IMG/VR virus record: IMGVR_UViG_2675903575_000014
Span: 1 to 28,377 of that record
DNA length: 28,377 bases
Source: a virus
Taxonomy: Duplodnaviria > Heunggongvirae > Uroviricota > Caudoviricetes
Reading direction: 5' to 3' (one strand)
The first letter of the stretch is position 1. Every line of letters starts with the position of its first letter. The notes under the pieces are model-generated. The model saw only the letters and a list, made by a program, of their open reading frames with translations, did not search any database and had not been told where the DNA came from. Positions 3,779 through 23,032 of the stretch are shown piece by piece. The position numbers were made by a program, and so were the translations under genes.

Positions 3779-3858
3779 TTTGTTTTAACCTCATTACAGA
3801 TTTAAGGGTGAACAAATCCCTGCCATTGCTGGCATATAAAAATGAAACCGGATATTAA

Positions 3859-4068
3859 TTACGGTGCTGTTTTAAGTCCTGCCGGGATTTCGTTATTGTC
3901 CATGCGAATAACTTTATCAACCGGATAACAGTTGCCGGGAATTTTCTGTTCCGCTGCGGCAGCCATGCATTCTTTCATTGAGTCATGTATACCAATAACA
4001 AGATCGACTGGCTCGCCTGTATTAAGAAAAACCGTCAGAACGAGTGCAAATACTGTATTCATTGTCAT
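3859..4068 (-). CDS. Small hypothetical protein with hydrophobic N-terminus (69 aa, MTMNTVFALVLTVFLNTGE...)
   Basis: Its ATG overlaps the stop of the upstream gene in an ATGA arrangement (translational coupling); signal-peptide-like N-terminus. Confidence 0.45.
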   Translation of the reverse strand: MTMNTVFALVLTVFLNTGEPVDLVIGIHDSMKECMAAAAEQKIPGNCYPVDKVIRMDNNEIPAGLKTAP

Positions 4069-4247
4069 CGTCCTTTTTGCATCAGGCGTAAACGGGCCAG
4101 CATTGAAACAATGCATATTTGATTTAATAGCTCCCGTTCGTGTTTTCTCTTATTAATGGCATCTTCAGTAAATACAGGGTTACTGATTCTGACACCAATT
4201 TCAAAACAACCTTCAGACGTATTGACGTTTGGTAATAACGTTTCCAT
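4065..4247 (-). CDS. Small early-left protein (60 aa), possibly Kil-like host-division inhibitor
   Basis: GAGGA Shine-Dalgarno 7 nt upstream of the ATG at 4247. Size and position fit a kil-type gene; sequence similarity to lambda Kil is only a vague impression. Confidence 0.35.
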   Translation of the reverse strand: METLLPNVNTSEGCFEIGVRISNPVFTEDAINKRKHERELLNQICIVSMLARLRLMQKGR

Positions 4248-4430
4248 TATCGCATCCTCAACAATGAATTTTGTGATGCGGTGCCTGGTGCCTCCAGGTG
4301 ACGTTAACCAGTTAATAATTAACGCCGGATACAGAGAACCCACCCATAAGAACCAATACGGAAGTCAACTGGCCTTTTTAACTGTTCCGCGTGCGCTGAG
4401 CCGCATTCACCGCATCACAAAATTCACTTT

Positions 4431-4476
4431 AAAAAGGGCGGGTATCACAAGGGAAAACAAAAAACGGATACCCGCC
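4431..4476 (-). terminator. Putative intrinsic terminator / attenuator on the leftward transcript
   Basis: 10-bp perfect stem GGCGGGTATC / GATACCCGCC with a 20-nt loop, followed on the minus strand by a T-run (plus-strand AAAAAG at 4431-4436). Confidence 0.4.
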
Positions 4477-4719
4477 AAAAGGTAATCAACATGGGTTGTT
4501 GCAGCGGGGTTGTCACTTAAGCGTATGGTCAACCTGACAACCCGGTGCCACTAATGGGGTAAGGATAACCCCGCCATACTTACCGCCGCGCCATTTCGCG
4601 GATTGCCACAACCGGAAGTGCACGGTCGACGAAAATTTAACGACAGGCTATCTATGAACCAGCTACCTCGCCGTACGCTTTCGCGTTGTGTGCCTGCTTT
4701 TAACCACGTCAGGCGAGGT

Positions 4720-7654: not shown

Positions 7655-8674
7655 ATGGCTAACGCTTGGCTCAGATTATGGCATGACATGCCAAATGACC
7701 CTAAGTGGCGAACAATTGCCAGGGTGTCAGGGCAGCCAATTGCAACAGTGATGGCAGTGTATATCCACCTCCTGGTGAGCGCGTCACGAAATGTCACGCG
7801 AGGTCACATTGATGTCACGACAGAAGATTTGGCAAGTGCGCTCGACGTGACAGAAGAGGTAATTGATTCAATTTTGCAGACGATGCAGGGGCGGGTACTT
7901 GATGGTGATTTAATCACTGGATGGGAAAAACGCCAGGTACTGAAAGAGGACAATGGCAACGTTTCACAAACCGCGAAATCCCCGGCAGAGCGCAAGAGAG
8001 CGCAGCGCGAGAGGGAAAAATTACGAAAACAGAATGAGGGGTGTCACGACGAGTCACGCATATGTCACGACATGTCACGACGAGTCACGACAGATAAAGA
8101 TACAGATAAAGAATTAAACCCCACACATAACGCGCGCGTGCGCGAGAGAGCTACGACCAGTGAGTCGAACGGTACGCCATCGCAGACACCGGAGCCCGAA
8201 TATCTGGACGGCATGAGCGAACCCATCGGGAAATTTCCGATGACCGATGGCTGGCATCCGTCGCCGGATTTTCGACGACGGGCTGCTCTGTGGGGAGTGG
8301 CTCTGCCTGAGCCGGAATTTACACCAGCTGAATTTGCAGCCTTCCGGGACTACTGGGCAGCGGAGGGGAAAGTGTTCACGCAGATTCAGTGGGAGCAGAA
8401 ATTCGCCCGTCACGTAAATCACGTCAGGGCGCAGGTTAAACCAGTCAGCAAGGGGGTAAACCATGCAGCAGCACCAGGTGGCACCGCATCACGAGCAGTT
8501 CAGGAAATTCGGGCAGCACGTGAGCAGTGGGAACGTGAAAACGGATTTATCAGCGACGGAAACGGCCTGGAAGCTGTGGGAACTCATGGGGGAGGTTTAT
8601 TCGAACCGCTGGACCCAGAAGAACGGGGCCGCACCTTCGAAGCTCTGGATTGCACAGATTGGCGCGATGACTGA
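7655..8674 (+). CDS. Replication initiator (O-like replisome organiser with DnaT-like C-terminal domain)
   Basis: ATG at 7655 with GAGGTG SD. N-terminal MANAWLRLWHDMPNDPKWR... resembles phage replisome-organiser N-domains; C-terminal PEFTPAEFAAFRDYWAAEGKVFTQIQWEQKF resembles DnaT-like domains. Contains two iteron clusters. The last ~70 codons overlap the P-like gene in another frame. Confidence 0.75.
   Translation: MANAWLRLWHDMPNDPKWRTIARVSGQPIATVMAVYIHLLVSASRNVTRGHIDVTTEDLASALDVTEEVIDSILQTMQGRVLDGDLITGWEKRQVLKEDNGNVSQTAKSPAERKRAQREREKLRKQNEGCHDESRICHDMSRRVTTDKDTDKELNPTHNARVRERATTSESNGTPSQTPEPEYLDGMSEPIGKFPMTDGWHPSPDFRRRAALWGVALPEPEFTPAEFAAFRDYWAAEGKVFTQIQWEQKFARHVNHVRAQVKPVSKGVNHAAAPGGTASRAVQEIRAAREQWERENGFISDGNGLEAVGTHGGGLFEPLDPEERGRTFEALDCTDWRDD
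7783..7819 (+). repeat. Iteron-like direct repeats, cluster 1 (four GTCAC(G/A) copies at 10-bp spacing)
   Basis: GTCACG at 7783, 7793 and 7814 and GTCACA at 7803, one helical turn apart, inside the O-like gene. Confidence 0.45.
8043..8094 (+). repeat. Origin iterons, cluster 2 (five GTCACG(AC) copies at 10-11-bp spacing, followed by an AT-rich stretch)
   Basis: GTCACGAC at 8043, 8064, 8074 and 8084 and GTCACGCA at 8053, then AT-rich cagataaagatacagataaagaattaaa. This is the classic lambdoid ori-within-O arrangement. Confidence 0.6.
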
Positions 8675-9128
8675 GCAGCAAATCCGTCAGGTCTGCCGCC
8701 AGTGCATGGACCGCTGCCGGACGGGTGAAACATGGCCTCCGGACCTGGCTGAGTTTGTGGCGCTGATTTCGGAGAGTGGGGCAAATCCATTTGGTCTGAC
8801 GGTGGATGCTGTGATGGAGGAGTACCGCCGCTGGCGCAATGAGTCCTGGCGATACGACGGAAGTGATAAGTACCCGTGGTCTCAGCCTGTGCTGTATCAC
8901 ATTTGCCTCGAGATGCGTTCAAAGGGGATTGAGCGCCAGATGACCGAAGGGGAGTTAAAACGGCTTGCAGAATGGCAACTGACGAAATGGGCAAAGCATG
9001 TTGGTAATGGCCTGAGCATTCCGCCAGTCCGGCGACAACTGGCAGCACCAAAACGCCCGTCGGGACCAACGCCAATTGAGTTGCTGAAACAGGAGTATGA
9101 ACGCCGGAAAGCGGCTGGTTTTGTTTGA
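8463..9128 (+). CDS. Replication protein P-like (helicase loader family, 221 aa)
   Basis: AAGGGGG SD then ATG at 8463. Residues about 40-150 align by eye with lambda P (lambda ...EIRRQWVLAFRENGITTMEQVNAGMRVARRQ... vs here ...[31 protein letters not shown]...; lambda YPWKSNAHYWL vs here [11 protein letters not shown]). Confidence 0.7.
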
Positions 9129-9162
9129 GTTGAGAAGTAATTTTTACCGGGAGGAAATTTTA

Positions 9163-9933
9163 ATGGAAACCGTTTTTGATGCACTGAAAGCAATGGGAAA
9201 AGCCACGTCGGTAGAACTGGCTGCGCGACTTGATATCAGTCGTGAAGAGATACTGAACGAGCTGTGGGAACTGAAAAGAAATGGCGTCGTTGATAAAACT
9301 GGTCACACCTGGTTTCTGGCTGGCGAAGGTGAATCCGGGGTAACCGAAGAGCAGCCAGCACAATCTGAAGTACCGGATGTGCTAACCGGGGTGGTCGAAC
9401 AAAAAGTTACCGCTGACATGATGATTGAGTTTATCGGTCAGGAGGGGGCTAAAACGTGTGAGGAACTGGCGAGTAAGTTCGGTGTCAGCACTCGCAAGGT
9501 TGCTTCCACGCTGGCGGTAGTAACCGCAACGGGGCGGCTGGCACGCGTTAATCAGAACGGTAAATTTCGTTACTGCCTGCCGGACGGTAATTTACCAGCA
9601 GAGCCGAAAGTTGTATCGGTAGCGAAAACACCTGGTAAAGGCTTTCCTCAGCCAGCCGGTTTTGCGTTACCAGTACAGGACGCGGCAACACAGGAAGAAA
9701 TTAAAACAGAAACTGTGGCGGACCTTGTGCAGTCACTGCCATCGTTCACTGAAACGCGAGCGAATGGCCTGATTTTACCATCGCTGCATATGGCAAACCG
9801 TGAACTGCGTCGGGCGAAAAGTCATGTCCAGAAGTGGGAGCGAGTCTGCGCCGCGCTGCGGGAGCTGAACAAGCACCAGGATATTGTCCGACAGATTGTC
9901 GATTCCTCCAGTCGTATTGTGTCGGAAAAGTGA
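9163..9933 (+). CDS. Hypothetical protein with tandem winged-helix-like segments (256 aa)
   Basis: GGGAGGA SD before the ATG at 9163; two helix-turn-helix-like segments ([26 protein letters not shown] and [22 protein letters not shown]). Confidence 0.6.
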
Positions 9934-9949
9934 TTCCTGGGGAGGGCTT

Positions 9950-10372
9950 ATGGCAAAAGTATTTACACAGAAAGAGCGAGAAAAAATTAAAGGGCAGATT
10001 GTTGATCTCGTACGCCAGAGCGGGCGAGAGACGTTACGACAACTGGAAGCTAAAACGGGGGCGACAAGATATCTGATAAGCGTTCTTGCCAGAGAGTTGG
10101 TTGCGAGCGGTGATGTATACAACTCTGGCTGCGGGTTATTCCCGTCTGAACAGGCTCGTAAGGACTGGCAAAACGCCCGCAAAAAGCTCTCAAGGGCAAA
10201 GGTGAAGAAAACGGTTGTGGTTGATCCGGACCTTATCTGGTCATTACCTGACGGAGAAATACGTCGCTACGACAGTCGTCTAAACATAATCTGTCGCGAG
10301 TGCCGGAAGAGCGAAGTTATGCAGCGCATACTGGCATTTTATCAGGGAAATGTTTGGTATTTATTGAAATGA
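9950..10372 (+). CDS. Hypothetical protein (140 aa) with N-terminal winged-helix-like segment and C-terminal CxxC
   Basis: GGGGAGGG SD before the ATG at 9950; basic; conserved nin-region position. Confidence 0.55.
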   Translation: MAKVFTQKEREKIKGQIVDLVRQSGRETLRQLEAKTGATRYLISVLARELVASGDVYNSGCGLFPSEQARKDWQNARKKLSRAKVKKTVVVDPDLIWSLPDGEIRRYDSRLNIICRECRKSEVMQRILAFYQGNVWYLLK

Positions 10373-10564
10373 CGAGATTAAAGAGCATTAGTTCAGATAT
10401 TAATTGACACTTCGGTTGCATAAGACTAGAACTACTGTGATTGGCATCTTTGTGCCAAAAACGGACATTACAGTGTATGGTTAATTCTGCCTGTCAAATA
10501 ACTTACATTCATCAAATGTTCGAAATTATGACTTAGCTCAACAATTAGGTTTAGCATGGGTCAT

Positions 10565-10596
10565 ATGACTAGAGTGCAGCAACTTTCTGCTATAAT
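10565..10596 (+). promoter_or_regulatory. Putative promoter with extended -10 (TGcTATAAT) for the KTSC gene
   Basis: TATAAT at 10591-10596 preceded by TG; AAGGA SD and ATG at 10613 follow. Lies in an AT-rich intergenic region. Confidence 0.4.
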
Positions 10597-10612
10597 TTAA
10601 TAAGGATAAAAA

Positions 10613-10840
10613 ATGCCAGCTTATGCTAATAAAGGCGGTAATTCGGGTATAGTGTTTTATGAGGTTACTCCAGATGCTATCACAGTACAGTTTAAAGATG
10701 GATGGAAATACGTTTACGATTCTACAAAACCAGGGGCTTTAACGGTCTCTAGGATGAAAGAGTTAGCCCAGGCTGGGCATGGGCTAAATAGTTTTATTAG
10801 TAGTGTGGTTAAGAAAAATTTCTCACGTAAATACCTTTAA
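10613..10840 (+). CDS. KTSC-domain protein (75 aa)
   Basis: Size and motif pattern (GIVFYEVTPDAITVQFKDGWKYVYDS...) fit the small KTSC domain family found in phages; AT-rich codon usage. Family assignment is by eye. Confidence 0.6.
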   Translation: MPAYANKGGNSGIVFYEVTPDAITVQFKDGWKYVYDSTKPGALTVSRMKELAQAGHGLNSFISSVVKKNFSRKYL

Positions 10841-10847
10841 TTTTAAT

Positions 10848-10874
10848 TGAGGGTGGGAAGGACTATCACCCTCA
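10848..10874. terminator. Hairpin between convergent genes (possible bidirectional terminator)
   Basis: 8-bp stem TGAGGGTG / CACCCTCA with an 11-nt loop between the KTSC gene (+) and the OLD gene (-); weak T-tract. Confidence 0.3.
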
Positions 10875-10993
10875 TAATTCTTCACCATTCAATCAAGAGC
10901 AATTCAAGGTGATTTTTTCTGTACATAGTCGGTTAGTTAGCACTTCGTAATTTATTGAATAGAAGGCTTTTGGAACAGTATCTTCACTCGTGC

Positions 10994-12874
10994 TTATCGC
11001 CCAGCAGATTTAGCAAGAATAGTCTCGAGCATTTCTGGTACGTTGCCTTTAGCATTGATAGTTGCTGTTCGGTAAGCTAGTTGATTTTTTGAGAGATTGA
11101 TTCCTGTAAGTGCTTCAATTTCGTTGCAGGCCTTACCCCATTCTACCCAGTTTTCAGACAAAAAAGATTCAAGATGATCCGCAAATATAGCAATATCATT
11201 AGTAACTGTTGCAGCTGGAAAATCCTCTTCGGGCATACCAAAGTATCTAAGCAGACTTCGATTCTCCATTGCGTGATTATTCCGCTCGGCATCGATAGCT
11301 CCCTGCATTTTATTTTTCGCTTTGGCACGAGCTTCAAAACCCGCATCTGCATCGAAAAGCGCGAAAACAGGAACGCCAATTGTACTTAGAATCGCATGGG
11401 CAAGTGGGATTGATGTCTTTGAACCTACAGGAACAATAGAGATGCCAGCGGCTTCAAGCGAGCCGTGTGACTTCCTGTCGCCAATTCCATAAAACACCGA
11501 TAATTCTGTTGTCCCTTCTACCAGAAAAGCTCTTTGGGCAAAGAGAGCTATTGAAAGCTGATCAGCTACATTATGGCCAAGCCTTCTATCAACTACTTCG
11601 GCATTAACAATTCCTTTTAATTTATCTTTGACATCTTCGATGGTTGCAAAGTGAACAGAAACAACGGGGTTTGCATCAGATGTTCGTGTCAATCGTCTAA
11701 TCTGGTTGAAATGGCGAGCTTCAAGAAAGTATGGGCTGTGAGTCGCATATGTTATCTGTATGCGCTTATCCGCATCTTCGGCGAGTTCTCTGAGTACTTT
11801 TGCAAATGCTTGTGCTTGGATCGGATGCTGAAATAATTCTGGTTCTTCGATCGCAAGGCAAATAACACCTTCGGTAGAGGCTGCACCAGACTGAGCTAAT
11901 AATTGGAGAGCAGAGATCAGTATCGTGCGTTGAAAGCCGTGCCCTTGCCTTTCGACTGCTGTTTCGGTTGTGCCATCAAGCACAGAAACTTCGAATGTGG
12001 TCTTGGGGGCCTTCAGTTCGATATTTGCAGGGGTAACTGTAACAGCACGACCGGGGGAGTAAGTCGTAACTACGGCGTTCAACTGCGCCGTCATATCCGC
12101 AAGTTGGGTTTCGAATTTTTCTTTGTAGACTTTCTGCTGCTGGACTCGGGATTCTTCAACAATCTTTGCAATTTCCTCATCTGCGGCGGTGCGATCAATC
12201 GAACGTTCAAGAATTCGACCAATAATACTCGCCTTGCCATCGAGAGACTCTTCACTGGCACGAAGATCTGCTGTTACCAAAACGTAATCAAAGAGACCGC
12301 TCATCTTGCCGCCACTGTTGAAACCGAAAAAGTTGGTTTGTAGGGATTCAAGTGCCTCATGTAGTAATTCTGTATGTGATGCTTCCCATGCAGTCATTGC
12401 TTCTTCGACAGCAAGCCCGGTCTTGGCAACGGGAAGATTGAATTCAGGATGTGCTTCTCGAAGAGCGTTGTACAAATCCTTCTTCGCTGTTGCTCCATTA
12501 GCAGCTTTAATATCGTTAAAATAAGGGAAACTTTTTGCGTTGGCAGAAAGCCTTTCTGAACCGTCGGGCGCGCGTAGCCTCCAGGCAGTGAATGTTGCTG
12601 CTCCCTGCGGAGCGTATTTGCCAAGTGCTTCACGATCTCTCTCAGTGAGGTTTGAGAAGGTAACCTGTACCTCAATATCTTTATCAATAGTTCCAAATGA
12701 GCAATCTTTTTCATTTAACATCCCGACCTTACCGTTGAAGAACCAATCAAGTGCTCGGAGAACAGTAGATTTACCTGCCCCATTCGGGCCAATGAACGTT
12801 GTAACGGAATCGAAGGGAATATTTATATCTGTCAAAGTACGAAAGTTTTTTATCCTAACGGAATGAATTTTCAT
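10994..12874 (-). CDS. OLD-family ATP-dependent nuclease (N-terminal ABC-type ATPase plus C-terminal Toprim; 626 aa); class 1 OLD or fused PARIS AriA-AriB-like
   Basis: Walker A GPNGAGKST (residues 30-38); Walker B-like VICLAIEEPELFQHP; H-loop-like YATHSPYF; C-terminal Toprim-like FLVEGTTE, VPVGSKTS and FALFDADAG. No adjacent UvrD-like helicase gene. AT-rich relative to flanking phage genes. Confidence 0.8.
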   Translation of the reverse strand: MKIHSVRIKNFRTLTDINIPFDSVTTFIGPNGAGKSTVLRALDWFFNGKVGMLNEKDCSFGTIDKDIEVQVTFSNLTERDREALGKYAPQGAATFTAWRLRAPDGSERLSANAKSFPYFNDIKAANGATAKKDLYNALREAHPEFNLPVAKTGLAVEEAMTAWEASHTELLHEALESLQTNFFGFNSGGKMSGLFDYVLVTADLRASEESLDGKASIIGRILERSIDRTAADEEIAKIVEESRVQQQKVYKEKFETQLADMTAQLNAVVTTYSPGRAVTVTPANIELKAPKTTFEVSVLDGTTETAVERQGHGFQRTILISALQLLAQSGAASTEGVICLAIEEPELFQHPIQAQAFAKVLRELAEDADKRIQITYATHSPYFLEARHFNQIRRLTRTSDANPVVSVHFATIEDVKDKLKGIVNAEVVDRRLGHNVADQLSIALFAQRAFLVEGTTELSVFYGIGDRKSHGSLEAAGISIVPVGSKTSIPLAHAILSTIGVPVFALFDADAGFEARAKAKNKMQGAIDAERNNHAMENRSLLRYFGMPEEDFPAATVTNDIAIFADHLESFLSENWVEWGKACNEIEALTGINLSKNQLAYRTATINAKGNVPEMLETILAKSAGR

Positions 12875-13295
12875 TTTGCTTCCCTTCCCAATATTGTGCC
12901 TTTTGATCAGTTATCTGATTAGATGTCGGAAAAATCACCCATGGGTATAGACTATGCGAAAAGCCATTGGTTGACTACCTCAATGTATCCTGTATCAACA
13001 ATGAAAATGTCCGTTCTTCGCTCACAGAGTTAGTGCGACAGCTTCGCACCAAGAGCTGACATTGTAATATCCGACAGGCTATTGCCTGTCAGTTAAGGGA
13101 GCAGTTACGTGTTATAAAAGGTCAGGCGGGATCCTGACTAGGCGTGTTTAAAGAAGTGCTGGTGGTGAGCGGGTGTTGTGTCCAATTTCCACAGAAAAAA
13201 AATCTGAGAAACTATACCCAATAGTTGTATTGAATCACTGACGAGACAGCCTCATATTTATCAGGACTGGCGTACGTCCAATTCAGGAGGTTGTC

Positions 13296-13385
13296 GTGCT
13301 GGTTCTCAAATGTGCGCTAGCTATTGCGGCTGTAATGGCAATTTATTGTCTTGCTGTTGTTCTTACGGATCGCCTTTCTGATTGA
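13296..13385 (+). CDS. Candidate small hydrophobic peptide (29 aa; VLVLKCALAIAAVMAIYCLAVVLTDRLSD from a GTG start)
   Basis: Perfect AGGAGG SD 5 nt upstream of the GTG; single predicted transmembrane helix followed by a charged tail, like type I toxins or a truncated Hok N-terminus. Confidence 0.3.
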   Translation: MLVLKCALAIAAVMAIYCLAVVLTDRLSD

Positions 13386-13469
13386 TTTTATATTGGCGAG
13401 GTGACGTGAGTTAAGTAGAATTGCTGCGGGTGCTTGAGGCTATCTGTCTCAGGCATGAACACCAAAGGC

Positions 13470-13560
13470 AGATAGAGAAAAGCCCCAGTTAACATTACGC
13501 GTCCTGCAAGACGCTTAACATTAATCTGAGGCTCAATCTATGAACGGCAAATCTAGGTTA
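13470..13560 (-). ncRNA. Predicted Sok-like antisense RNA of the hok locus (position approximate)
   Basis: Inferred from hok/sok family architecture. The leader (gcttgaggctatctgtctcagg ... ggcagatagagaaaagcccc) resembles, from my memory of R1, the hok mRNA 5' region. No explicit promoter was mapped. Confidence 0.25.
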
Positions 13561-13596
13561 GCCTCTTACGTGCCGAAAGGCAAGGAGAAGCAGGCT

Positions 13597-13752
13597 ATGA
13601 AGCAGCAAAAGGCGATGTTAATCGCCCTGATCGTCATCTGTTTAACCGTCATTGTGACGGCACTGGTAACGAGGAAAGACCTCTGCGAGGTACGAATCCG
13701 AACCGGCCAGACGGAGGTCGCTGTCTTCACAGCTTACGAACCTGAGGAGTAA
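13597..13752 (+). CDS. hok: Hok/Gef-family type I toxin (51 aa; MKQQKAMLIALIVICLTVIVTALVTRKDLCEVRIRTGQTEVAVFTAYEPEE)
   Basis: Single transmembrane helix followed by the conserved Cys-containing periplasmic tail typical of Hok/Gef; I recall this as matching E. coli HokD/RelF, unverified. An in-frame upstream ATG at 13540 gives a 70-aa mok-like extension. Confidence 0.85.
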   Translation: MKQQKAMLIALIVICLTVIVTALVTRKDLCEVRIRTGQTEVAVFTAYEPEE

Positions 13753-13820
13753 GAGACCTGGCGGGGGAGAAATCCCTCGCCACCTCTGATGTGTCAGGCA
13801 TCCTCAACGCACCCGCACTT

Positions 13821-13842
13821 AACCCGCTTCGGCGGGTTTTTC
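13821..13842 (+). terminator. Rho-independent terminator after hok
   Basis: ACCCGC-TTCG-GCGGGT hairpin followed by TTTT. Confidence 0.6.
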
Positions 13843-13967
13843 GTCGCATTATGAGGTTGTAATTTTAGCTACCATTAGACTATCCTAAGGATCTCAAACA
13901 GATCTATTTTGCATCAAATTTGGTGCATGGCTTTGCCAATAATCGGAAAACAAAAGGACTCATTAGT

Positions 13968-14147
13968 ATGAGCTGCCCACTCAAAAAACACACGCGGTTG
14001 AGTATTCCGCCTCGCGATAAAAGCGTTGTGGCAGTCCCTCGCCCAGCGATTGATGAAAACTGCGCACATCGTGAACAAGTGAAAAATGCTTTTGATTTCG
14101 GTTTTTCTCGTTATGAGAAAGCCATGGAAGAACTTTCAAAAGTGTAA
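13968..14147 (+). CDS. Candidate antitoxin for the Doc-like toxin (59 aa)
   Basis: Small ORF 19 nt upstream of the Doc-like gene; AAAGGA SD. No clear similarity to Phd; assigned by position only. Confidence 0.4.
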   Translation: MSCPLKKHTRLSIPPRDKSVVAVPRPAIDENCAHREQVKNAFDFGFSRYEKAMEELSKV

Positions 14148-14165
14148 TGATGGGTATTGTGCTCT

Positions 14166-14651
14166 ATGGCTGAGATTGTTGAAGGAGTGCATTACCTTAC
14201 GGTTGATGATCTTGTTGAAATCAATCGTTCCCTAATTGAATTACAGACGCCAGATGAGCCCGTTGGTGTTCTGAGTCCAGATAACTTAAGTTCTTCTCAG
14301 GCCCGTCCCAGCATGGTTCGATGGTATGAACAGACTAATGACATGTTTGTACTGGCATCGGTATTGATTGAAAGTCTGATTCAGAATCATCCGTTTGCTA
14401 ATGCGAACAAACGAACAGCTATGATGGCTGGTTACGTCTTCTTGTTGTTGAATGGCTATGAGTTAACAGCACCAGGCGATGAAATCGTGGAAATGGCAGA
14501 GGGACTGGCCTGCAAAACCTATACTCGAGAAGATCTCGAGAACTGGTTGTGTTATTGGTCTCGCGCGTATGACAGCCGGGAATTATGTAAAACAGGCGCA
14601 ACTATTGTTTTGTATGAAACTATCAAGCTTAGAATAGAACAGCAAAACTAA
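14166..14651 (+). CDS. doc: Doc-family toxin (Fic/Doc fold, 161 aa)
   Basis: HPFANANKRTA matches the Doc signature H-x-F-x-(D/N)-(A/G)-N-K-R (P1 Doc has HIFNDANKRTA). Size is appropriate and it is followed by a terminator. Confidence 0.8.
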   Translation: MAEIVEGVHYLTVDDLVEINRSLIELQTPDEPVGVLSPDNLSSSQARPSMVRWYEQTNDMFVLASVLIESLIQNHPFANANKRTAMMAGYVFLLLNGYELTAPGDEIVEMAEGLACKTYTREDLENWLCYWSRAYDSRELCKTGATIVLYETIKLRIEQQN

Positions 14652-14666
14652 AGGCGCTTCCAATGA

Positions 14667-14696
14667 AAACCCGCTTCGGCGGGTTTTGTTTTTTCC
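14667..14696 (+). terminator. Rho-independent terminator after doc
   Basis: AAAACCCGC-TTCG-GCGGGTTTTGTTTTTT; same hairpin core as the hok terminator. Confidence 0.6.
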
Positions 14697-14766
14697 GGGC
14701 ATTCTGGTTTACAATCTGCACGCCAGCCTGAACAACTGGCACCTGCTGCGCCAGCAGAGAAAACAG

Positions 14767-15045
14767 ATGGCGCACAAGACCAAATTACACAATTCTGATA
14801 ATTCAGCCGCTTTTGCCAGCAGGCACGGGCGGCGTTCTCATGTATTCAAATCTGACTGGTACCAGCATCCCCCATGCACTGAAGAACAGGCCGAATGGCT
14901 GATTCAGTGTTACGGCAGGCGCGGATACGAGGTTAAGAAAGCCCTCAGCCTCGATTATCGTCACTGGATAATCTCTGTCAGGCTCCCTTATTCCGAACGT
15001 CCACCGCGTCCATCCCGCACATACCAGCAACGTATCTGGAGGTAA
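14767..15045 (+). CDS. Hypothetical basic protein (92 aa)
   Basis: ORF ending 1 nt before the GTG of the next gene, whose GGAGG SD lies within its 3' end; weak own SD. Confidence 0.35.
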   Translation: MAHKTKLHNSDNSAAFASRHGRRSHVFKSDWYQHPPCTEEQAEWLIQCYGRRGYEVKKALSLDYRHWIISVRLPYSERPPRPSRTYQQRIWR

Positions 15046-15046
15046 C

Positions 15047-16096
15047 GTGCGGGTATTACTTCGACCTGTTCTGGTACCGGAACTCGGGCTGGTGGTCCTT
15101 AATCCGGGCCGTGAATCCATGCCGGTATTTTACAATACCCGGGTGTTGGTGGAGCCGGAACCGAAAAACATGCGGGCGCTGCCATCAGGAGAGGTTCCCG
15201 CTGTTCGCCAGCCGCTGGCGCAAGACAAATCGTTACTGCCATTTTTCAGCGATGAGCGGGTGATCCGTGCTGTAGGTGGTGCAGGCGCACTGTCTGACTG
15301 GCTATTACGTCACGTGAAATCCTGCCAGTGGCCACACGGCGATTATCATCACAGCGAAACCGTCATACATCGTTACGGTACTGGCGCGATGGTGTTGTGC
15401 TGGCACTGCGACAACCAGCTGCGGGAGCAGACATCTGATTCACTGGAGCAACTTGCTCAGCAGAATCTGGCTGCCTGGATGATTGACGTCATACGTCACG
15501 CAATGAATGGCACACAAGAGCGGGAATTATCGCTGGCTGAATTATCCTGGTGGGCGGTCTGCAATCAGGTGGCGGACGCGCTACCGGAGGCAGTATTACG
15601 TCGCTCTCTGGGATTACGTGCGGAAAAAATCCACTCGGTGTATCGCGAAAGTGACATCGTACCGGGAGAGCAGAGCGCCACCAGCATACTGAAGCAGCGC
15701 ACAAAAAATCTTGCGCCGTTGCCTCATGTCCACCAGCAACAAATCCCGCCACAGGAAAAGACGGTGGTCAGCATTGCCGTTGATCCGGAGTCTCCTGAAT
15801 CTTTCATGAGGCGACCTAAACGTCGCCGTTGGGTAAATGAGAAATATACGCGCTGGGTGAAGACACAGCCGTGTGCGTGTTGTGGTCAACCAGCCGACGA
15901 CCCCCATCACCTGATTGGTCACGGTCAGGGTGGAATGGGAACAAAGGCCCACGATATTTTTACGTTACCGTTGTGTCGTAAACATCATAACGAGCTTCAT
16001 GCAGATCCGTTGGCGTTCGAAGAAAAGCATGGTTCTCAGGTTGATTTAATTTTTCGTTTTCTTGATCACGCCTTTGCAACCGGCGTGCTTGGATAA
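15047..16096 (+). CDS. DUF968/YdfU-like protein with C-terminal HNH-like zinc-finger motif (349 aa)
   Basis: C-terminal CACCG-x-PADDPHHLIGHG...CRKHHNELH resembles an HNH-type motif. Length and position (upstream of rusA and Q) match Qin YdfU, recalled from memory. Confidence 0.65.
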   Translation: MRVLLRPVLVPELGLVVLNPGRESMPVFYNTRVLVEPEPKNMRALPSGEVPAVRQPLAQDKSLLPFFSDERVIRAVGGAGALSDWLLRHVKSCQWPHGDYHHSETVIHRYGTGAMVLCWHCDNQLREQTSDSLEQLAQQNLAAWMIDVIRHAMNGTQERELSLAELSWWAVCNQVADALPEAVLRRSLGLRAEKIHSVYRESDIVPGEQSATSILKQRTKNLAPLPHVHQQQIPPQEKTVVSIAVDPESPESFMRRPKRRRWVNEKYTRWVKTQPCACCGQPADDPHHLIGHGQGGMGTKAHDIFTLPLCRKHHNELHADPLAFEEKHGSQVDLIFRFLDHAFATGVLG

Positions 16097-16108
16097 AAGA
16101 GGTTACTG

Positions 16109-16468
16109 ATGGGGATAGAATTTGTTTTGCCTTACCCGCCGACGGTGAATACCTACTGGCGTCGTCGTGGCAGCACATATTTTGTATCAAAAGCAGGGGA
16201 GCGTTATCGCCGGGATGTGGCGCTTATTGTTCGCCAGCAGCGACTGAAATTAAATCTGTCCGGAAGGCTGGCAATAAAAATTATTGCAGAGCCGCCGGAT
16301 AAGCGCCGTCGTGACCTGGACAATATTCTGAAAGCACCACTGGATGCACTGACACATGCGGGACTGATTATCGACGATGAGCAGTTTGATGAAGTTAATA
16401 TTATGCGCGGTCAGGTTATTCCCGGTGGTCGGCTGGGGATAAAAATCACAGAACTGGAGTGCGCATGA
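16109..16468 (+). CDS. rusA: Holliday junction resolvase RusA (119 aa)
   Basis: Motifs PPTVNTYWRRRG and PDKRRRDLDNILKAPLDALTHAGLIIDD align with E. coli RusA ([23 protein letters not shown]). Confidence 0.85.
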   Translation: MGIEFVLPYPPTVNTYWRRRGSTYFVSKAGERYRRDVALIVRQQRLKLNLSGRLAIKIIAEPPDKRRRDLDNILKAPLDALTHAGLIIDDEQFDEVNIMRGQVIPGGRLGIKITELECA

Positions 16469-17130
16469 ATAACCAGTATTTACAGTTTGTGCGTGAGCAG
16501 CTCACGATCGCCACCGCTGATTTGAGTGGAGCAACAAAAGGTCAGCTTGAAGCCTGGCAGGAGAATGCCATGTTCAATACAGGGCGTTACAGACGTAAAA
16601 AAATCCGGTGCCGCGATAAGGTCACTGGAAAAATAGTAACGCTGGATAATCCACCGATCCCGGGAAAGCAATCGCTGGTGAAAGGTTCATCAATTGCCCT
16701 GGTCAGTCCGGTTGAGTTTTCGACATCATCATGGCGACGCGCCGTTCTGTCTCTTGAAGAACATCATAAAGCCTGGCTGCTGTGGTGTTACAGCGGTAGC
16801 ATTTGCTGGGAGCATCAGATCGCGATAACGCAGTGGGCGTGGACTGAATTTAATGCTCAATCCGGTACCAGAAAAATTGCAGGAAAAACTCTGGTGCGCC
16901 TGAAGACGTTGATCTGGTTGGCGGCGCAGGCGGTAAAAGCTGAGCTTTTTGGTGGGGAAGGTTACGAATACCAGGAACTGGCGTTACTGGTGGGAGTAAC
17001 AACCAAAAACTGGTCCAAGACATTTACTGGTCACTGGGTTGCAATGAAACACATTTTTCATCGGCTGGATGGTGAAGCTTTATTGTTGGTGGAGGGAACA
17101 CGTTCAAAACAAAAGGCGGCATTTTCATAG
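16465..17130 (+). CDS. Putative late-gene antiterminator (Q-like, 221 aa)
   Basis: Position immediately after rusA and before the pR'-like promoter and terminator; Cys/His/Trp-rich central region; ATGA overlap with the rusA stop. Assigned mainly by synteny. Confidence 0.55.
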   Translation: MNNQYLQFVREQLTIATADLSGATKGQLEAWQENAMFNTGRYRRKKIRCRDKVTGKIVTLDNPPIPGKQSLVKGSSIALVSPVEFSTSSWRRAVLSLEEHHKAWLLWCYSGSICWEHQIAITQWAWTEFNAQSGTRKIAGKTLVRLKTLIWLAAQAVKAELFGGEGYEYQELALLVGVTTKNWSKTFTGHWVAMKHIFHRLDGEALLLVEGTRSKQKAAFS

Positions 17131-17137
17131 CAAAGTA

Positions 17138-17166
17138 TTGCAAAAGTAGATAAAAAGGCATATATT
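17138..17166 (+). promoter_or_regulatory. Putative late promoter pR' (-35 TTGCAA, 17-bp spacer, -10 TATATT)
   Basis: Good sigma-70 hexamers directly downstream of the Q-like gene. Confidence 0.45.
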
Positions 17167-17214
17167 TCGTGTGAGTCTGATATTTTGCCGTTTTTATACG
17201 TGATGGCAAAGCTA

Positions 17215-17244
17215 GTAAAACCCGTGACCGAGCGGGTTTTTTTA
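17215..17244 (+). terminator. Putative tR' terminator
   Basis: AAAACCCG-TGACCGAG-CGGGTTTTTTTA hairpin with a T7 run, about 50 nt downstream of the putative pR'. Confidence 0.55.
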
Positions 17245-17383
17245 TCCCTAAAAAATGGCATAGACATTAAACGTGATGATGATTGTGCCAATACTTTCTC
17301 CATCAATGACGCCCCTTGACTGCATGGAATCCAATTTGTTATGTAATATGTGTTGATATTTTTGAGTTGTTAATGGTGTTACT

Positions 17384-18097
17384 ATGGATGACAGTGCTCT
17401 GCTCAGAAACTCTTCACTTTTTGTTGCTTATATGGGCTGTCTAGGATGGGGAAGCGCTTATTTCTATGGATGGGGTACTTCATTTTACTATGGCTTTCCA
17501 TGGTGGGTTGTCGGGGCTGGTGTCGATGATGTAGCACGAAGTTTGTTTTATGCTGTGACAGTTATCGTTATATTCCTTATTGGATGGGGAGTTGGTATTG
17601 TTTTCTTTTTGGGCATAAAACAAAAGCGCAATATACAAAATTTGAGTTTTATCCGGCTTTTTCTCGCGATATTGCTGCTTTTTATTCCACCTGTTCTGGA
17701 GTTTTCGGTAATTCATCAGCATGTTGAGCCAGATGTACTGATTTTCTGCATTCTTGCTGCCTTTACAATCACGCTTTTTGTCAGGTTTGGAAGAAGACTT
17801 GTTTCAGTCAAATGTTTTTCGGAAATGTCTTTTATTCGTCATCACCGAATTGAGTTCATGATGGCTGGGTTTATGATTTATTTCTGGGCATTCTCTCTTA
17901 TTGCCGGTTGGTACAAACCACAGTTTAAGAGGGAATATCAGGCGATCCACTATGAGAATGTATGGTATTACATTATTGCGCGTTATGATGATCGTCTGGT
18001 GTTATCGAAATCATACAGGAGTGGGGGTAAGAAATTCGTTATATTTAATAGCGGAAATATTAATGATTTTGAAATTAATACAGTCAGAGTGCGTTAA
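17384..18097 (+). CDS. Hypothetical polytopic membrane protein (237 aa), AT-rich late-region moron
   Basis: Five or six predicted hydrophobic helices, rich in Trp/Tyr/Phe; AT-rich codon usage unlike flanking genes; sits where lambdoid phages carry cargo such as stx. Confidence 0.6.
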   Translation: MDDSALLRNSSLFVAYMGCLGWGSAYFYGWGTSFYYGFPWWVVGAGVDDVARSLFYAVTVIVIFLIGWGVGIVFFLGIKQKRNIQNLSFIRLFLAILLLFIPPVLEFSVIHQHVEPDVLIFCILAAFTITLFVRFGRRLVSVKCFSEMSFIRHHRIEFMMAGFMIYFWAFSLIAGWYKPQFKREYQAIHYENVWYYIIARYDDRLVLSKSYRSGGKKFVIFNSGNINDFEINTVRVR

Positions 18098-18270
18098 AAT
18101 TTCTTGAGTAACAAAGATTTTTACCGCCCGCCATTGAGAGGTTTTTTATGCCAGAAAAATGGTTCGGTACATAAAATGTGCAGGTGGTTATTAATACCGG
18201 TCTTTCAGCTTGCTGGCTTTTTCGACAAGAGTTATTGGTATGTCACGTTAACCAATAAAGAGAAAAAGAC

Positions 18271-18468
18271 ATGCTAAAACAGCAGGATATGACCGAAACA
18301 GCCAGAGTGGTGTTTAATGAATTAAGCGTCACTGAACCGGCAACAGTTGGGGAAATTGCGCAGAATACTTACCTTTCACGCGAACGCTGTCAGTTAATAC
18401 TGACCCAGCTTGTTATGGCGGGTCTGGCAGATTATCAGTTCGGTTGTTACAGACGCCTTCCGCAGTGA
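18271..18468 (+). CDS. Hypothetical small protein (65 aa), possible winged-helix regulator
   Basis: AAGAGAAAAAGAC then ATG; the TVGEIAQNTYLSRERCQLILTQL segment resembles an HTH recognition helix. Confidence 0.4.
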   Translation: MLKQQDMTETARVVFNELSVTEPATVGEIAQNTYLSRERCQLILTQLVMAGLADYQFGCYRRLPQ

Positions 18469-18618
18469 AGGTTTTTTCATTTGTGGTAATGGGCGGCTGG
18501 TGGGTGTTAGCGGCACCTGCCAGCCATCTGCTCATGCGTTAGGGTCACAAGCAAACCTCAGGCCCATCTGCTTTGCGCAAAAGCGGTATGAGCCTATCAG
18601 AGAAGTGCTTATTGATCT

Positions 18619-19704
18619 ATGGTTGATACTGTAAAAATATCCAGTTGTGAGTTAATCAACGCTGATTGCCTGGAATTTATCCAGACCTTACCGGAAAACT
18701 CTGTCGATCTGATAGTCACAGACCCGCCATACTTTAAAGTGAAGCCCGAGGGCTGGGATAACCAGTGGAAGGGCGACGATGATTACCTGAAATGGCTGGA
18801 TCAGTGTCTGGCTCAGTTCTGGCGGGTACTGAAACCTGCCGGAAGTCTCTACCTGTTCTGTGGTCATCGCCTGGCATCTGACACCGAAATCATGATGCGT
18901 GAGCGCTTTAATGTGCTGAACCACATTATCTGGGCGAAGCCATCCGGACGCTGGAACGGGTGCAACAAAGAAAGCCTGCGGGCGTATTTCCCGGCAACAG
19001 AGCGCATTCTGTTTGCCGAACATTATCAGGGGCCATACCAGCCAAAAAATGATGGCTATGCGGCAAAGGAGCGCGAGCTTAAACAACACGTCATGGCCCC
19101 GCTGATTTCTTACTTCCGTGATGCGCGTGAATCACTGGGGATAACGTCCAAACAGATAGCGGAAGCCACCGGAAAGAAAAACATGGTGTCGCACTGGTTT
19201 GGTACCTGTCAGTGGCAGTTACCGAACGAAGCTGATTACAGAAAACTGCAGGCGCTGTTCGCGTGTGTTGCAGAAGAAAAGCACCAGCGTGGGGAGCTGG
19301 CAACGCCACACCAGCAACTGGTCAGCACATACAGTGAACTGAACCGGCAATATGCCAGTCTGCTTGAGGAATACAAATCTCTGCGGCGTTATTTTTCTGT
19401 ATCGGCCGCCGTTCCTTATACGGACGTCTGGACGCATAAGCCCGTGCAGTATTATCCGGGTAAGCATCCCTGCGAAAAACCGGCGGATATGTTGCGTCAG
19501 ATAATTTCTGCCAGCAGTCGTCCGGGGGATGTGGTTGCGGATTTTTTTATGGGATCGGGGGCAACAATAAAAGCAGCAATGGGATTGGGGCGTCGCACGA
19601 TTGGGGTTGAACTTGAGTCCGGGCGTTTTGAACAAACAGTTGGTGAAATATTGGTGCTGAACGATAAATTGCGAAATGCACAATTAGATAAGAACAGGAG
19701 CTAA
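18619..19704 (+). CDS. Orphan DNA methyltransferase (N6-adenine/N4-cytosine, beta class; 361 aa)
   Basis: DPPY catalytic motif near the N-terminus (TDPPYF) and an AdoMet-binding FxGxG motif near the C-terminus (DFFMGSGAT); no adjacent restriction endonuclease candidate. Confidence 0.85.
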   Translation: MVDTVKISSCELINADCLEFIQTLPENSVDLIVTDPPYFKVKPEGWDNQWKGDDDYLKWLDQCLAQFWRVLKPAGSLYLFCGHRLASDTEIMMRERFNVLNHIIWAKPSGRWNGCNKESLRAYFPATERILFAEHYQGPYQPKNDGYAAKERELKQHVMAPLISYFRDARESLGITSKQIAEATGKKNMVSHWFGTCQWQLPNEADYRKLQALFACVAEEKHQRGELATPHQQLVSTYSELNRQYASLLEEYKSLRRYFSVSAAVPYTDVWTHKPVQYYPGKHPCEKPADMLRQIISASSRPGDVVADFFMGSGATIKAAMGLGRRTIGVELESGRFEQTVGEILVLNDKLRNAQLDKNRS

Positions 19705-20222
19705 TCCTCGATTAATATCTAAGCCAAGCAGGATGCTAGGAAGTTCTGATATATTCTGATCGTTTTTCGATGCTTTAAAATGATTTGTGCTGGTTGCGAA
19801 AGCACGTGGTCGGGCACTGCGTTCACGCATCTGGAGGGTGTGAAGCCAGCTTTTTTGTGTGTATTCAGATGGCGTTCTGATTCTATAACGAGTTACGTGG
19901 ACATCAGGGATGGAGAGAATAGGAACGCCATCTTAATACATTTTCCCCGTTTATTTGATATATCTTCCGGATAAGGGATTAGGTCTGGTTTTTTATGTCA
20001 TTCAATAACGCTCTTCTATACTGTATACAATACTTTATCCTGGCAGTGTGTTTAAAACCTGAACTTATCCTTTGTTTCGTTTATAGACAGAAGGGCTAAT
20101 GTCGACTTATCATCAGCAGGATGGCAATAGATGTGTAAGTAGCTGGTCACCAGCTATACTTCAGTGGTACTTCTGAGTGCTTCTCTCCGTGAAATGATTA
20201 TCATCCAGATGGCAGGAGTAGA

Positions 20223-20501
20223 GTGAATATTGATGATATTTCCAGGTGCTCCAGCTTGTTGCAGCGTATTGAGGATGTTAATGCTGAACGAGCCAGGGCC
20301 TTTAGTCGTTTGACAGTTATATTTTCTACCCCTGATCGCCTTTCAGGAAAGAACATTGTTTTATTAAACAGTGATGCCATCCATAAGGTTTTTGAAGAGT
20401 TCATGGCTGCTAATTCAGAATTGCTGGCTCTTGTTGAGGAATACAACGAGATAGCCAGCCGTGTCGGTATGGATGAATTCAACGTCATACTTCGTGGATA
20501 A
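20223..20501 (+). CDS. Hypothetical protein (92 aa)
   Basis: ORF (probably GTG start) followed at 20525-20548 by a strong intrinsic terminator. Confidence 0.4.
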   Translation: MNIDDISRCSSLLQRIEDVNAERARAFSRLTVIFSTPDRLSGKNIVLLNSDAIHKVFEEFMAANSELLALVEEYNEIASRVGMDEFNVILRG

Positions 20502-20524
20502 AAACATGCTTCATATTTTCTGTT

Positions 20525-20548
20525 AGCTCGCTACTGCGAGCTTTTTTG
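20525..20548 (+). terminator. Rho-independent terminator
   Basis: AGCTCGC-TACT-GCGAGCT followed by TTTTTT. Confidence 0.55.
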
Positions 20549-20859
20549 TATCTGAGCCACATCAGGCGCACATCAAAAACACAGAGCCTTTCAGGGCGGG
20601 GAGGGGGCTCTTGCCGTTACACCGTAATGCAAAATAACAGCATACAAAAGGTATCGGTGATGGTTGTTATTGGTGTGGTTTATTAAAAAAGTGTAAGAAA
20701 ATTATGAGCGTTGTAGTTGAACAAAATGGTGAAATTGTATGAGCTCGGCATAATGAAAGTTCTGAAGGTATTGCCTGCACACGCTGTGTAAAGGACGGCA
20801 CGCAACTGCGACTCGTTGCCGTCCTTGAGGACGCATTTACTCAGGCTAAAGGCGAGTTG

Positions 20860-21195
20860 CTATGCTGGGATGACGGAAATGGAGTGCCGAATAGCTGCAC
20901 TTCCGCCTCCTAAATCAATTGTAATATTCCAGTAACCTGAATGCGGTACATGAAGGTGGGCCGGTAATCTCTGAAAAAAACCGCCACCACCGTGATGATG
21001 AAAGCTTCTTGCGTTGCGGTAGTTATTAAAGTTTGTATCTGTCATCAGCAAAATATTGCACTGATGAGAGCAGTCAACCACTACCGTATCTCCTGCATTT
21101 AAATGCATTCTTTTATGTAAAAACTGCATGTGATTTCCCTGATCAGAGGTAATCAGCCATCCCTCTTTCTCTATGATGAGCCAGCGTCCCACCAC
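20860..21195 (-). CDS. Hypothetical protein (111 aa) with His/Gly-rich tract
   Basis: Minus-strand ORF just upstream of the lysis cassette; contains HHHGGGG; a stem-loop (20791-20828) lies downstream. Confidence 0.45.
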   Translation of the reverse strand: MVGRWLIIEKEGWLITSDQGNHMQFLHKRMHLNAGDTVVVDCSHQCNILLMTDTNFNNYRNARSFHHHGGGGFFQRLPAHLHVPHSGYWNITIDLGGGSAAIRHSISVIPA

Positions 21196-21328
21196 TGGCG
21201 GGCTGAATGCTTAACATATCCAGGGTTCAGAAAACGGTAAACCCTGATAAATATCCATATCTTCAAACGTTAATAAAATGTCAGTTACGGGGCCGCTGAT
21301 GGTCCTTTTTATTTACAGGAGAATAAAT

Positions 21329-21986: not shown

Positions 21987-21987
21987 T

Positions 21988-23028: not shown

Positions 23029-23032
23029 TGAG

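Follow-up and report, generated by a model that had tools for sequence, protein, structure and literature searches.

The tailed-phage record IMGVR_UViG_2675903575_000014 (Caudoviricetes) supplied the 28,377 nucleotides analyzed here, which we call the window. Between the last gene of its replication region and ydfU, rusA, and Q lies a stretch of accessory genes: a gene encoding 75 amino acids (aa), a stand-alone OLD-family nuclease, a hok/mok/sok locus, and a Doc toxin preceded by a small open reading frame (ORF) of 59 aa. An original prediction, made from the sequence alone, had described this stretch as an AT-rich island stacking toxin and defense modules that might form a functionally linked system. 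All of the genes that it listed proved to be present and intact in profile searches, and the island lies where it was placed, with the end of DUF977 at 10372 on the left and YdfU, RusA, and Q on the right. We find an accessory hotspot that is real but fairly ordinary, each of its modules being of a known kind; what is new is modest, namely the OLD lineage, the unannotated family of the Doc partner, and a two-slot map anchored on hok with hairpin-bounded cassettes.

Gene families were assigned by listing ORFs and searching them with Pfam, NCBIfam, and PADLOC profiles, and the hok RNA was identified by way of Rfam. Slot contents were compared across 15 related prophage loci that we inspected, and allele and core counts were taken from 5,426 complete Escherichia coli genomes, the frequencies for slot B coming from allele-specific searches of that set. 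The region is laid out as follows (GC, guanine plus cytosine):

Stop at 10372: DUF977, the last replication-region gene (left flank)
10373–13407: variable slot A, from the stop of DUF977 up to the conserved hok core (42.9% GC)
13408–13846: conserved hok/sok core, delimited by an alignment of seven loci
13847–14668, + strand: variable slot B, holding the Doc cassette here and missing from locus L002 (42.5% GC)
14767–15045, + strand: conserved right-flank ORF of 92 aa, directly upstream of ydfU and annotated in related loci
15047–16096: YdfU (DUF968), followed by RusA and Q

The hok Core and Its Two Variable Slots

The anchor of the region is the hok core, which has the following features:

13393–13421, + strand: hok mRNA promoter (TTGGCG, 17-nucleotide spacer, TAGAAT)
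13428–13846, + strand: full-length hok mRNA (leader, mok, hok, fbi, terminator)
13478–13548, − strand: predicted Sok antisense RNA, read from the sequence by eye
13540–13752, + strand: mok-like extended ORF of 70 aa, in frame with hok
13597–13752, + strand: hok, 51 aa (HOK_GEF, PF01848, 3e-23)
13822–13840, + strand: hok terminator hairpin ACCCGCTTCGGCGGGTTTT, copy 1, forming the left joint of slot B; located with a pattern search and by reading the sequence

The seven aligned loci show no variation in the hok −10 element or in the sequence that follows it; the core as a whole is nearly invariant from that element to the T-run of the terminator, and divergence is abrupt on both sides. The Hok-type locus of the original prediction is borne out by the HOK_GEF match and by the Rfam sok family (RF01794; 13428–13602; 110 bits, the gathering score being 59), and the product is annotated by the Prokaryotic Genome Annotation Pipeline as HokD (WP_000813254.1). 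The minimum-free-energy fold pairs the 5' segment GGGUGCUUGAGG with the 3' segment CCUCAACGCACCC (tac/fbi; 13428–13439 with 13803–13815; z = −8.2). The predicted Sok transcript would run antisense across the start of mok and include a hairpin and U-run; its candidate promoter on the minus strand (TTGCCT at 13583–13578, a 17-nucleotide spacer, and TAACCT at 13560–13555) was unflagged by the consensus scan. By its promoter, Rfam match, mok-like frame, and fold-back pairing, the core has the makeup of a complete hok/sok locus. Weak Rfam matches to rsmX, RydC, the Leu leader, and isrK (26–28 bits), located on the hok 3' untranslated region, the hok terminator hairpin, and the doc-terminator region, lie far below the gathering scores and were treated as chance. 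Of the 5,426 genomes, 4,019 contain the core at 80% coverage or more, the median copy number being two per genome.

The contents of the slots on either side vary widely, as the original prediction had expected of cargo between conserved flanks. At least nine contents of slot A were found among the 15 loci (the 75-aa gene with OLD, the 75-aa gene with a deleted OLD, relBE, DUF551 with a 34-aa protein, a DUF4014/IS110/DUF551 set, DUF4406 with a hypothetical protein, QueH, a pair of genes encoding 332 and 500 aa, and an empty slot), and at least five of slot B (Doc, Doc with RelE and a helix-turn-helix [HTH] protein, the Rosmer genes RmrT and RmrA, rem, and an empty slot). In one locus (L004) the cargo of slot A is replaced and homology resumes at 13408. 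The 332- and 500-aa gene pair belongs to the EC42405 prophage (L026, 11187–13692), where it takes the place of window positions 10408–13197; it gives only sub-threshold, restriction-nuclease-like matches (HSDR_N and REase models) and is a candidate for an uncharacterized defense pair. In the O104:H4 prophage, slot B holds Doc plus the RelE/HTH pair. At the equivalent position of a Salmonella enterica prophage (L023, 3496–6009), hok, the 59-aa gene with Doc, ParDE, and VapBC stand in a row. The conserved 92-aa ORF on the right flank has no family match in Pfam or NCBIfam.

Several of the slot alleles are known defense or toxin-antitoxin modules. Across the 5,426 genomes, slot B holds rem in 2,790, an empty junction in 2,145, Doc in 125, and Rosmer in 41. 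As a name for the site, "defense hotspot" is apt in that the site is a variable accessory one with some defense and toxin-antitoxin alleles; it is overstated because slot B mostly holds rem or nothing, Doc and Rosmer being minority alleles.

The low GC content is a property of the cargo. The region as a whole has 43.9% GC against 52.6% and 51.4% in its flanks, and the low values are confined to the cargo genes, whose GC at third codon positions (GC3) is 0.32–0.41, below that of the flanks. The AT-richness first claimed for the whole island thus stands for the region and its cargo but not for the hok locus (52.2% GC, GC3 of 0.67), and three further patches of the window are equally AT-rich (approximately 40%–43% GC; 17000–18500, 19500–20500, and 23250–24500). 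Located beyond Q and in the neighborhood of the lysis genes, these patches are likely to be further accessory ("moron") sites; EC42405 has a DNA methyltransferase in its segment downstream of Q. The claim that each module has its own promoter and terminator is not sustained by a consensus scan judged against shuffled sequence controls: the region contains 5 promoter-like sites against 6.9 ± 2.3 in the shuffles and 7 terminator-like sites against 5.4 ± 2.4, and the scan backs only the hok promoter (13393–13421) and the hairpin that follows doc (14666–14687).

The backbone in which the region sits is composite. Positions 10000–15200 are 100% identical to a prophage of the bovine E. coli strain N61, and the match to N61 is limited to 8087–16437 (99.6% identity), whereas 1–4623 and 13198–26000 match the EC42405 prophage, which comes from a bovine strain and is integrated beside yccA (99.6%–99.7%). 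None of the complete E. coli genomes holds the whole window, the best coverage being 76%. With an N61-like middle and an EC42405-like remainder, the window is therefore itself a mosaic, and the OLD-hok-Doc segment is present on two different prophage backbones, that of the window and that of N61. The complete N61 sequence, the closest relative of the region, carries an IS3 element and an ORF6N pseudogene within the same prophage.

Cargo Genes of Slots A and B

The four cargo genes (the 75-aa gene, OLD, the 59-aa ORF, and doc) have ratios of nonsynonymous to synonymous substitution (dN/dS) of 0.06–0.15 in pairwise comparison with relatives, and are therefore all real genes under purifying selection. 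Their activities, their expression, and any defense phenotype we infer from sequence. The largest of them occupies slot A:

10994–12874, − strand: stand-alone Class 1 OLD-family ATPase-Toprim nuclease, 626 aa
11221–12945: segment of 1,725 bp that is precisely deleted in the commoner "OLD remnant" allele, as seen in locus L003

The description of this gene as a stand-alone OLD ATPase-Toprim nuclease was upheld by matches to AAA_15 (7e-43, residues 1–383) and to the OLD-like TOPRIM domain (PF20469, 2.6e-15, residues 444–510), and by the defense-annotation search that had been proposed, in which the PADLOC "Old" model scored 187 bits (1.3e-55), the best GajA model scored 93 bits, and AriA covered the ATPase part only; the Doc and Hok families were recovered by the profile searches as well. 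The best solved structure is that of the Class 1 OLD of Thermus scotoductus (Ts) (6p74, 7e-25), to which both the ATPase and the Toprim part match; the GajA and PtuA structures match the N-terminal 67–74 residues only, and Eco8 matches residues 340–465 only. The neighbors of the gene are the 75-aa gene and hok. Membership in a Gabija, PARIS, or retron-associated system was rejected, there being no neighboring helicase, AriB, or reverse transcriptase, and PADLOC "Old" scoring best.

The protein shares 23% identity with P2 Old over 527 residues, and the residues on which catalysis depends can be followed through most of the alignment. The Walker A motif, GPNGAGKS, contains K35, and the Walker B segment is IEEPE at 342–346, with a Glu in place of Asp as in Ts OLD. 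K35, E343/E344, H350, H379, E453, E457, D508, and D510 align to P2 catalytic residues (PMC7049728): in the ATPase domain K35, IEEPE, H350, and H379 correspond to K37, D299, H306, and H332 of P2 Old, and in the Toprim domain E453, E457, D508, and D510 correspond to E398, E402, D453, and D455, so that both the metal-A Glu (E453) and the DxD motif (D508, D510) are present. K37, E398, E402, D453, and D455 of P2 Old are essential in vivo (PMC7049728).

Two Class 1 relatives have been characterized in different terms: P2 Old, once activated, cleaves the anticodon stem of tRNA-Thr (PMC12445682), and Vc OLD is a DNA nickase that is RecBCD-independent (PMC12392090). Since these known mechanisms differ, we commit ourselves only to an ATP-controlled Toprim nuclease effector. 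By sequence the protein is most likely a nuclease of this sort that acts as a single-gene anti-phage or abortive effector, and we give tRNA and DNA roughly equal odds as its substrate. The orientation of the gene, against the early-right operon, suggests expression in the lysogen from a promoter of its own. Its lineage extends well beyond this site. A full-length homolog of 626 aa in E. coli H6 (and H5) has 77% amino-acid identity, and gp28 of the P2-like Burkholderia phage KS5, also 626 aa and lying between tail genes S and V, has 69%; literature searches found no experimental work on KS5 gp28 or on the H5/H6 homolog. The H6 operon (L007, 1–12509) encodes an HTH regulator, a 1,092-aa helicase-related protein, DUF4391, OLD, DUF2130, a methyltransferase, and a type III restriction endonuclease.

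OLD shares slot A with a small convergent gene, and the two lie in a block that has a counterpart in Yersinia:

10449–13024: block of the 75-aa gene and OLD, common with a Yersinia enterocolitica genomic island
10451–10469, + strand: left copy of a 19-nucleotide inverted-repeat motif (TGAGCGAAGAACGGACATT), 144 nucleotides upstream of the 75-aa start
10613–10840, + strand: 75-aa gene, encoding a small beta-beta-beta-alpha-alpha-beta protein that is distantly KTSC-like
13006–13024, − strand: right copy of the motif (TGAGCGAAGAACGGACATT), 132 nucleotides upstream of the OLD start codon
13296–13385, + strand: 29-aa hydrophobic small ORF (MLVLKCALAIAAVMAIYCLAVVLTDRLSD), with an AGGAGG Shine-Dalgarno sequence and a GTG start

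The block of 2.6 kb is 93.7% identical over 2,584 columns to Y. enterocolitica loci (L013–L016), where the 75-aa gene and OLD are likewise convergent. Its ends fall within 2–4 nucleotides of the two arms of a 23-nucleotide inverted repeat, the 19-nucleotide core of which has exactly two occurrences in the window (chance expectation, 0.01), each arm 130–145 nucleotides upstream of a gene that reads inward. The Yersinia island (L013) has related copies of the motif at 5064 and 5786, upstream of two neighboring genes. The repeat could be a promoter or operator element shared by the two genes or a cassette boundary, and we leave the choice undecided. A transposon-like cassette was rejected as the main reading and is kept below as an alternative of low probability: the inverted repeat is there, but the block has neither a flanking direct repeat (target-site duplication) nor an empty site in the 5,426 E. 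coli genomes.

The label "KTSC-domain" given earlier to the 75-aa protein was not confirmed. Even at E ≤ 10 the protein matched nothing in Pfam, the KTSC model (PF13619) included, or in NCBIfam, and the likeness of fold is weak. The AlphaFold model is confident (predicted local distance difference test score of 89); against KTSC proteins it gives template-modeling (TM) scores of 0.57–0.61 with Foldseek E-values of 0.02–0.5 (TM 0.57/0.61 and E 0.46 for 7x8c_B; E 0.02–0.08 for viral KTSC proteins). It is far closer to a domain of phiKZ-like virion proteins (TM 0.91–0.94, 32%–38% identity). That domain sits inside large virion structural proteins of the Pseudomonas jumbo phages 201phi2-1, PA7, Phabio, and PhiPA3. 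Across the Enterobacterales the family is constant in length at 75 aa; the gene has a dN/dS of 0.12–0.15, and it is found without OLD in Pectobacterium and Buttiauxella. The 29-aa ORF of slot A lies immediately before the hok promoter. Prophages of O157 and O104 have a homolog of it ahead of hokD, annotated there as a protein of 34 aa; in other variants of slot A a different small membrane peptide (MNWPEAF.../MTWPEAF...) stands at that end.

Slot B is filled by a two-gene cassette that ends in a second copy of the hok terminator hairpin:

13968–14147, + strand: candidate antitoxin of 59 aa, from an unannotated family, 18 nucleotides upstream of doc
14166–14651, + strand: Doc-family (Fic-fold) toxin, 161 aa
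14669–14687, + strand: terminator hairpin ACCCGCTTCGGCGGGTTTT, copy 2, the right joint of slot B

The Doc-type toxin with an upstream candidate antitoxin was correctly recognized. The toxin scores 128.5 bits with TIGR01550 (cut-off 38.65; 1.5e-37) and 46.5 bits with Fic (PF02661; cut-off 24; 6.9e-12); its active-site motif, HPFANANKR at residues 75–83, fits HxFx(D/N)(A/G)NKR and is aligned in matches to the Doc chains 9vzc and 3k33 of the Protein Data Bank (PDB). The 59-aa ORF accompanies doc in all 125 of the genomes that carry it, the matches beginning at its ATG or upstream, and is also found beside doc in Salmonella. Its dN/dS is 0.07, and its family comprises 38 clusters at 50% identity, nearly all of 47–62 aa, with an invariant C-terminal ...RYEKAxExLSKV. 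The structural model has a disordered N-terminus and one confident helix at residues 34–57, a single-helix model with which fold searches are uninformative. No match was found in Pfam or NCBIfam at E ≤ 10 or in the PDB, and comparison by hhalign with the verified P1 Phd gave a probability of 0.2%; on these negatives we set aside a Phd/YefM, ribbon-helix-helix, or AbrB protein. Position and conservation in sequence nonetheless make it probable that the 59-aa protein is the Doc antitoxin.

The hairpin bounds the cassette on both sides. Its 19 nucleotides occur in two exact copies in the window (13822 and 14669; 0.00 expected), which bracket the cassette; in MB06231, without the Doc cassette, the hok hairpin is joined directly to the right flank, and homology with the Doc-less allele of L002 stops at hairpin copy 1. 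The Rosmer cassette (L003; PADLOC RmrA 5.5e-102, RmrT 7.5e-10) is bracketed likewise, its second hairpin copy having one mismatch. Exchange has also taken place inside the cassette: between the N61-type and O157-type cassettes (window 13968–14651 against L005, L006, and L008) synonymous divergence (dS) is 0.61 in the antitoxin gene and 0.01 in doc, and this discordance therefore points to recombination between the two genes.

Probable Assembly of the Region and Alternative Explanations

The observations are best accounted for by an accessory, or moron, zone in an E. coli lambdoid prophage of the Qin/Rac type, in which a fixed hok/mok/sok locus is flanked by two slots that hold independent, self-contained modules; we put the probability of this explanation at roughly 0.8. 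The modules would have been acquired separately through recombination at short conserved joints, such as the duplicated hok terminator hairpin, and would work in parallel for prophage stabilization, exclusion of other phages, or both, and not as one machine. In OLD the ABC-ATPase domain would control the Toprim nuclease, the target being tRNA, as for P2 Old, or DNA, which would be nicked as by Vc and Ts OLD. The stable hok mRNA would be silenced by fold-back pairing of its 5' and 3' ends together with the short-lived Sok antisense RNA, and loss of transcription, whether by prophage loss or host shut-off, would release the membrane-depolarizing Hok peptide. Doc, by family membership, would be a kinase that phosphorylates elongation factor Tu and so halts translation, and the 59-aa protein would be a labile antitoxin acting via its invariant C-terminal helix.

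Several points weigh against this explanation or its parts. For none of OLD, the 75-aa gene, and the 59aa-doc operon did the consensus scan find a convincing sigma-70 promoter. In the 59-aa protein neither a DNA-binding domain nor a likeness to Phd can be recognized, its role as antitoxin being positional. The metal-B residues of OLD (D541/E543 in P2, S478/E480 in Ts) are unmapped, the C-terminus being unaligned to both P2 Old and Ts OLD. OLD is moreover rare, the intact segment being found at 99% or more in three of the 5,426 genomes (with two further, distant copies) against 25 with the deletion junction; at this site it is mostly a deletion remnant and may be costly or non-functional here. 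Among the slot alleles of the population, the majority (rem, empty, DUF551, QueH) are not recognized as defense genes, and in a genome-wide survey hok was enriched in prophages and not near known defense systems (12% observed against 9.4% expected; bioRxiv 10.1101/2025.08.07.668861), a finding that fits the dominance of non-defense alleles here.

The first alternative to consider is the one originally favored, that the 75-aa gene, OLD, hok, and 59aa/Doc make up one linked, previously undescribed multi-component defense system. The genes are adjacent within 4.3 kb, and the identical full combination occurs in the window and in N61 on otherwise different backbones; one recombination event, however, accounts for the identical segment of 8.35 kb on the two backbones. 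No two of the modules always stay together: OLD is found without Doc in MB06231 and SCU-113, Doc (125 genomes against 3 with OLD) occurs without OLD, and hok stands without either in thousands of genomes. With OLD homologs found elsewhere beside none of the other modules, and the 75-aa gene found alone, these separations therefore rule out a single linked system for practical purposes, and we regard it as extremely improbable. That the genes are the decaying cargo of a defective prophage and no longer functional would suit the IS3 element and the ORF6N pseudogene of the N61 prophage and the prevalence of the OLD remnant. It is nevertheless very unlikely, given that all four ORFs are full length in the window with intact catalytic motifs, that dN/dS is 0.06–0.15, and that the RNA elements of hok are invariant across loci.

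A narrower linkage, in which the 75-aa gene and OLD are regulated together as a unit or form a mobile cassette that lacks a transposase and is bounded by inverted repeats, the motif serving as operator or promoter in the one case and as terminal repeat in the other, draws on the joint movement of the 2.6-kb block between Yersinia and E. coli, on the coincidence of its ends with the 23-nucleotide repeat, on the scarcity of the 19-nucleotide core, and on the placing of its copies ahead of both inward-reading genes and in the Yersinia island. We think it unlikely nonetheless: Pectobacterium and Buttiauxella have the 75-aa gene without OLD, E. coli H6 and phage KS5 have OLD without the 75-aa gene, 25 genomes keep the 75-aa gene with OLD deleted, and there is neither a target-site duplication nor, among the 5,426 genomes, an empty site. 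More credible, although still short of even odds, is that hok/sok and Doc are addiction modules that act by post-segregational killing and have no role in phage defense, OLD alone being defensive. Both the hok/sok family (of R1) and the phd/doc family (of P1) were first defined by plasmid or prophage maintenance, and the Salmonella relative stacks four toxin-antitoxin modules with no recognized defense gene; the survey's placing of hok in prophages and away from defense systems points the same way. Yet slot B carries a recognized defense system, Rosmer, in 41 genomes, R1 hok/sok is reported, as far as the survey relates it, to exclude T4 (reference 15 in bioRxiv 10.1101/2025.08.07.668861), and the maintenance and defense roles are not mutually exclusive.

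Within the accessory-zone explanation, we advance tentatively a more specific and doubtful proposal, that hok/sok serves as a conserved "landing pad." Its terminator hairpin ACCCGCTTCGGCGGGTTTT would be the joint at which hairpin-ended cassettes such as 59aa/Doc and Rosmer are swapped, while the opposite slot would take cargo bounded by short repeats, such as the 75-aa/OLD block from a Yersinia island, and the 59-aa protein would represent a new, minimal family of Doc antitoxins without a DNA-binding domain.

None of the findings overturns current understanding. For annotation, they offer a clear map of a prophage locus that is very common in E. coli; its hok core is present in approximately three-quarters of complete genomes. 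They also draw attention to an uncharacterized Class 1 OLD lineage that spans lambdoid phages, P2-like phages, and chromosomal islands, and to an unannotated family of proteins of approximately 55 aa that, on sequence, probably neutralize Doc without a DNA-binding domain. With regard to phage evolution, the duplicated joints at the terminator exemplify the shuffling of cassettes between prophages.

Comparison with Known Systems

No paper on this particular hotspot came up in literature searches. Its counterpart in K-12 is familiar. In the Qin prophage, as here, immunity and replication genes are followed by cargo, hokD, further cargo, ydfU, and Q, in the order relB-relE-hokD-rem-ydfU-ydfT, and a type II toxin-antitoxin pair adjoins hok. 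From this order at the same place it follows that the site is the long-known relBEF/hokD neighborhood. The RefSeq accession of HokD is the same for N61 and for most of the related prophages that we inspected. Slot A is filled by OLD in the window and by relBE in Qin, and slot B by 59aa/Doc in the one and rem in the other. In Qin, relBE replaces the hok leader, so that homology starts just before the hok ATG (the matches of 59% coverage), whereas the window retains an intact promoter, mok, sok target, and fbi element.

Like the OLD of the window, P2 Old is a single-gene ABC-ATPase and Toprim nuclease and a lysogenic-conversion gene of a temperate phage, and the two share conserved Walker A, Walker B, D-loop, H-loop, and metal-A residues. 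They differ in length (626 aa in the window, 586 aa in P2), in the C-terminal approximately 115 residues, which are unaligned, and in their carriers, the one being on a lambdoid and the other on a P2-like phage. Triggering by RecBCD inhibition and the tRNA-Thr anticodon stem as substrate (PMC12445682) are traits described for P2 Old. KS5 gp28 and the E. coli H5/H6 homolog belong to the same OLD lineage as the window protein but lie in different gene contexts.

The Doc cassette has its nearest analog in P1 phd/doc, which is also prophage-borne and has a Fic-fold Doc with the HxFx(D/N)(A/G)NKR motif and a small upstream ORF in an operon with it. Unlike P1 Phd, the upstream 59-aa protein of the window is not a Phd/YefM homolog, and the Doc of the window, at 161 aa, has a C-terminal extension relative to the 126 aa of P1 Doc.

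As a whole, the site resembles the hotspots of P2 and P4 (Rousset et al. 2022, PMC9122126), in which conserved phage flanks likewise enclose variable cargo that includes defense systems, P2's own hotspot holding old and tin (PMC9122126). It differs from them in its lambdoid backbone, in its two slots anchored on hok/sok, in the predominance of non-defense alleles (rem or empty), and in joints that lie at a duplicated terminator hairpin.

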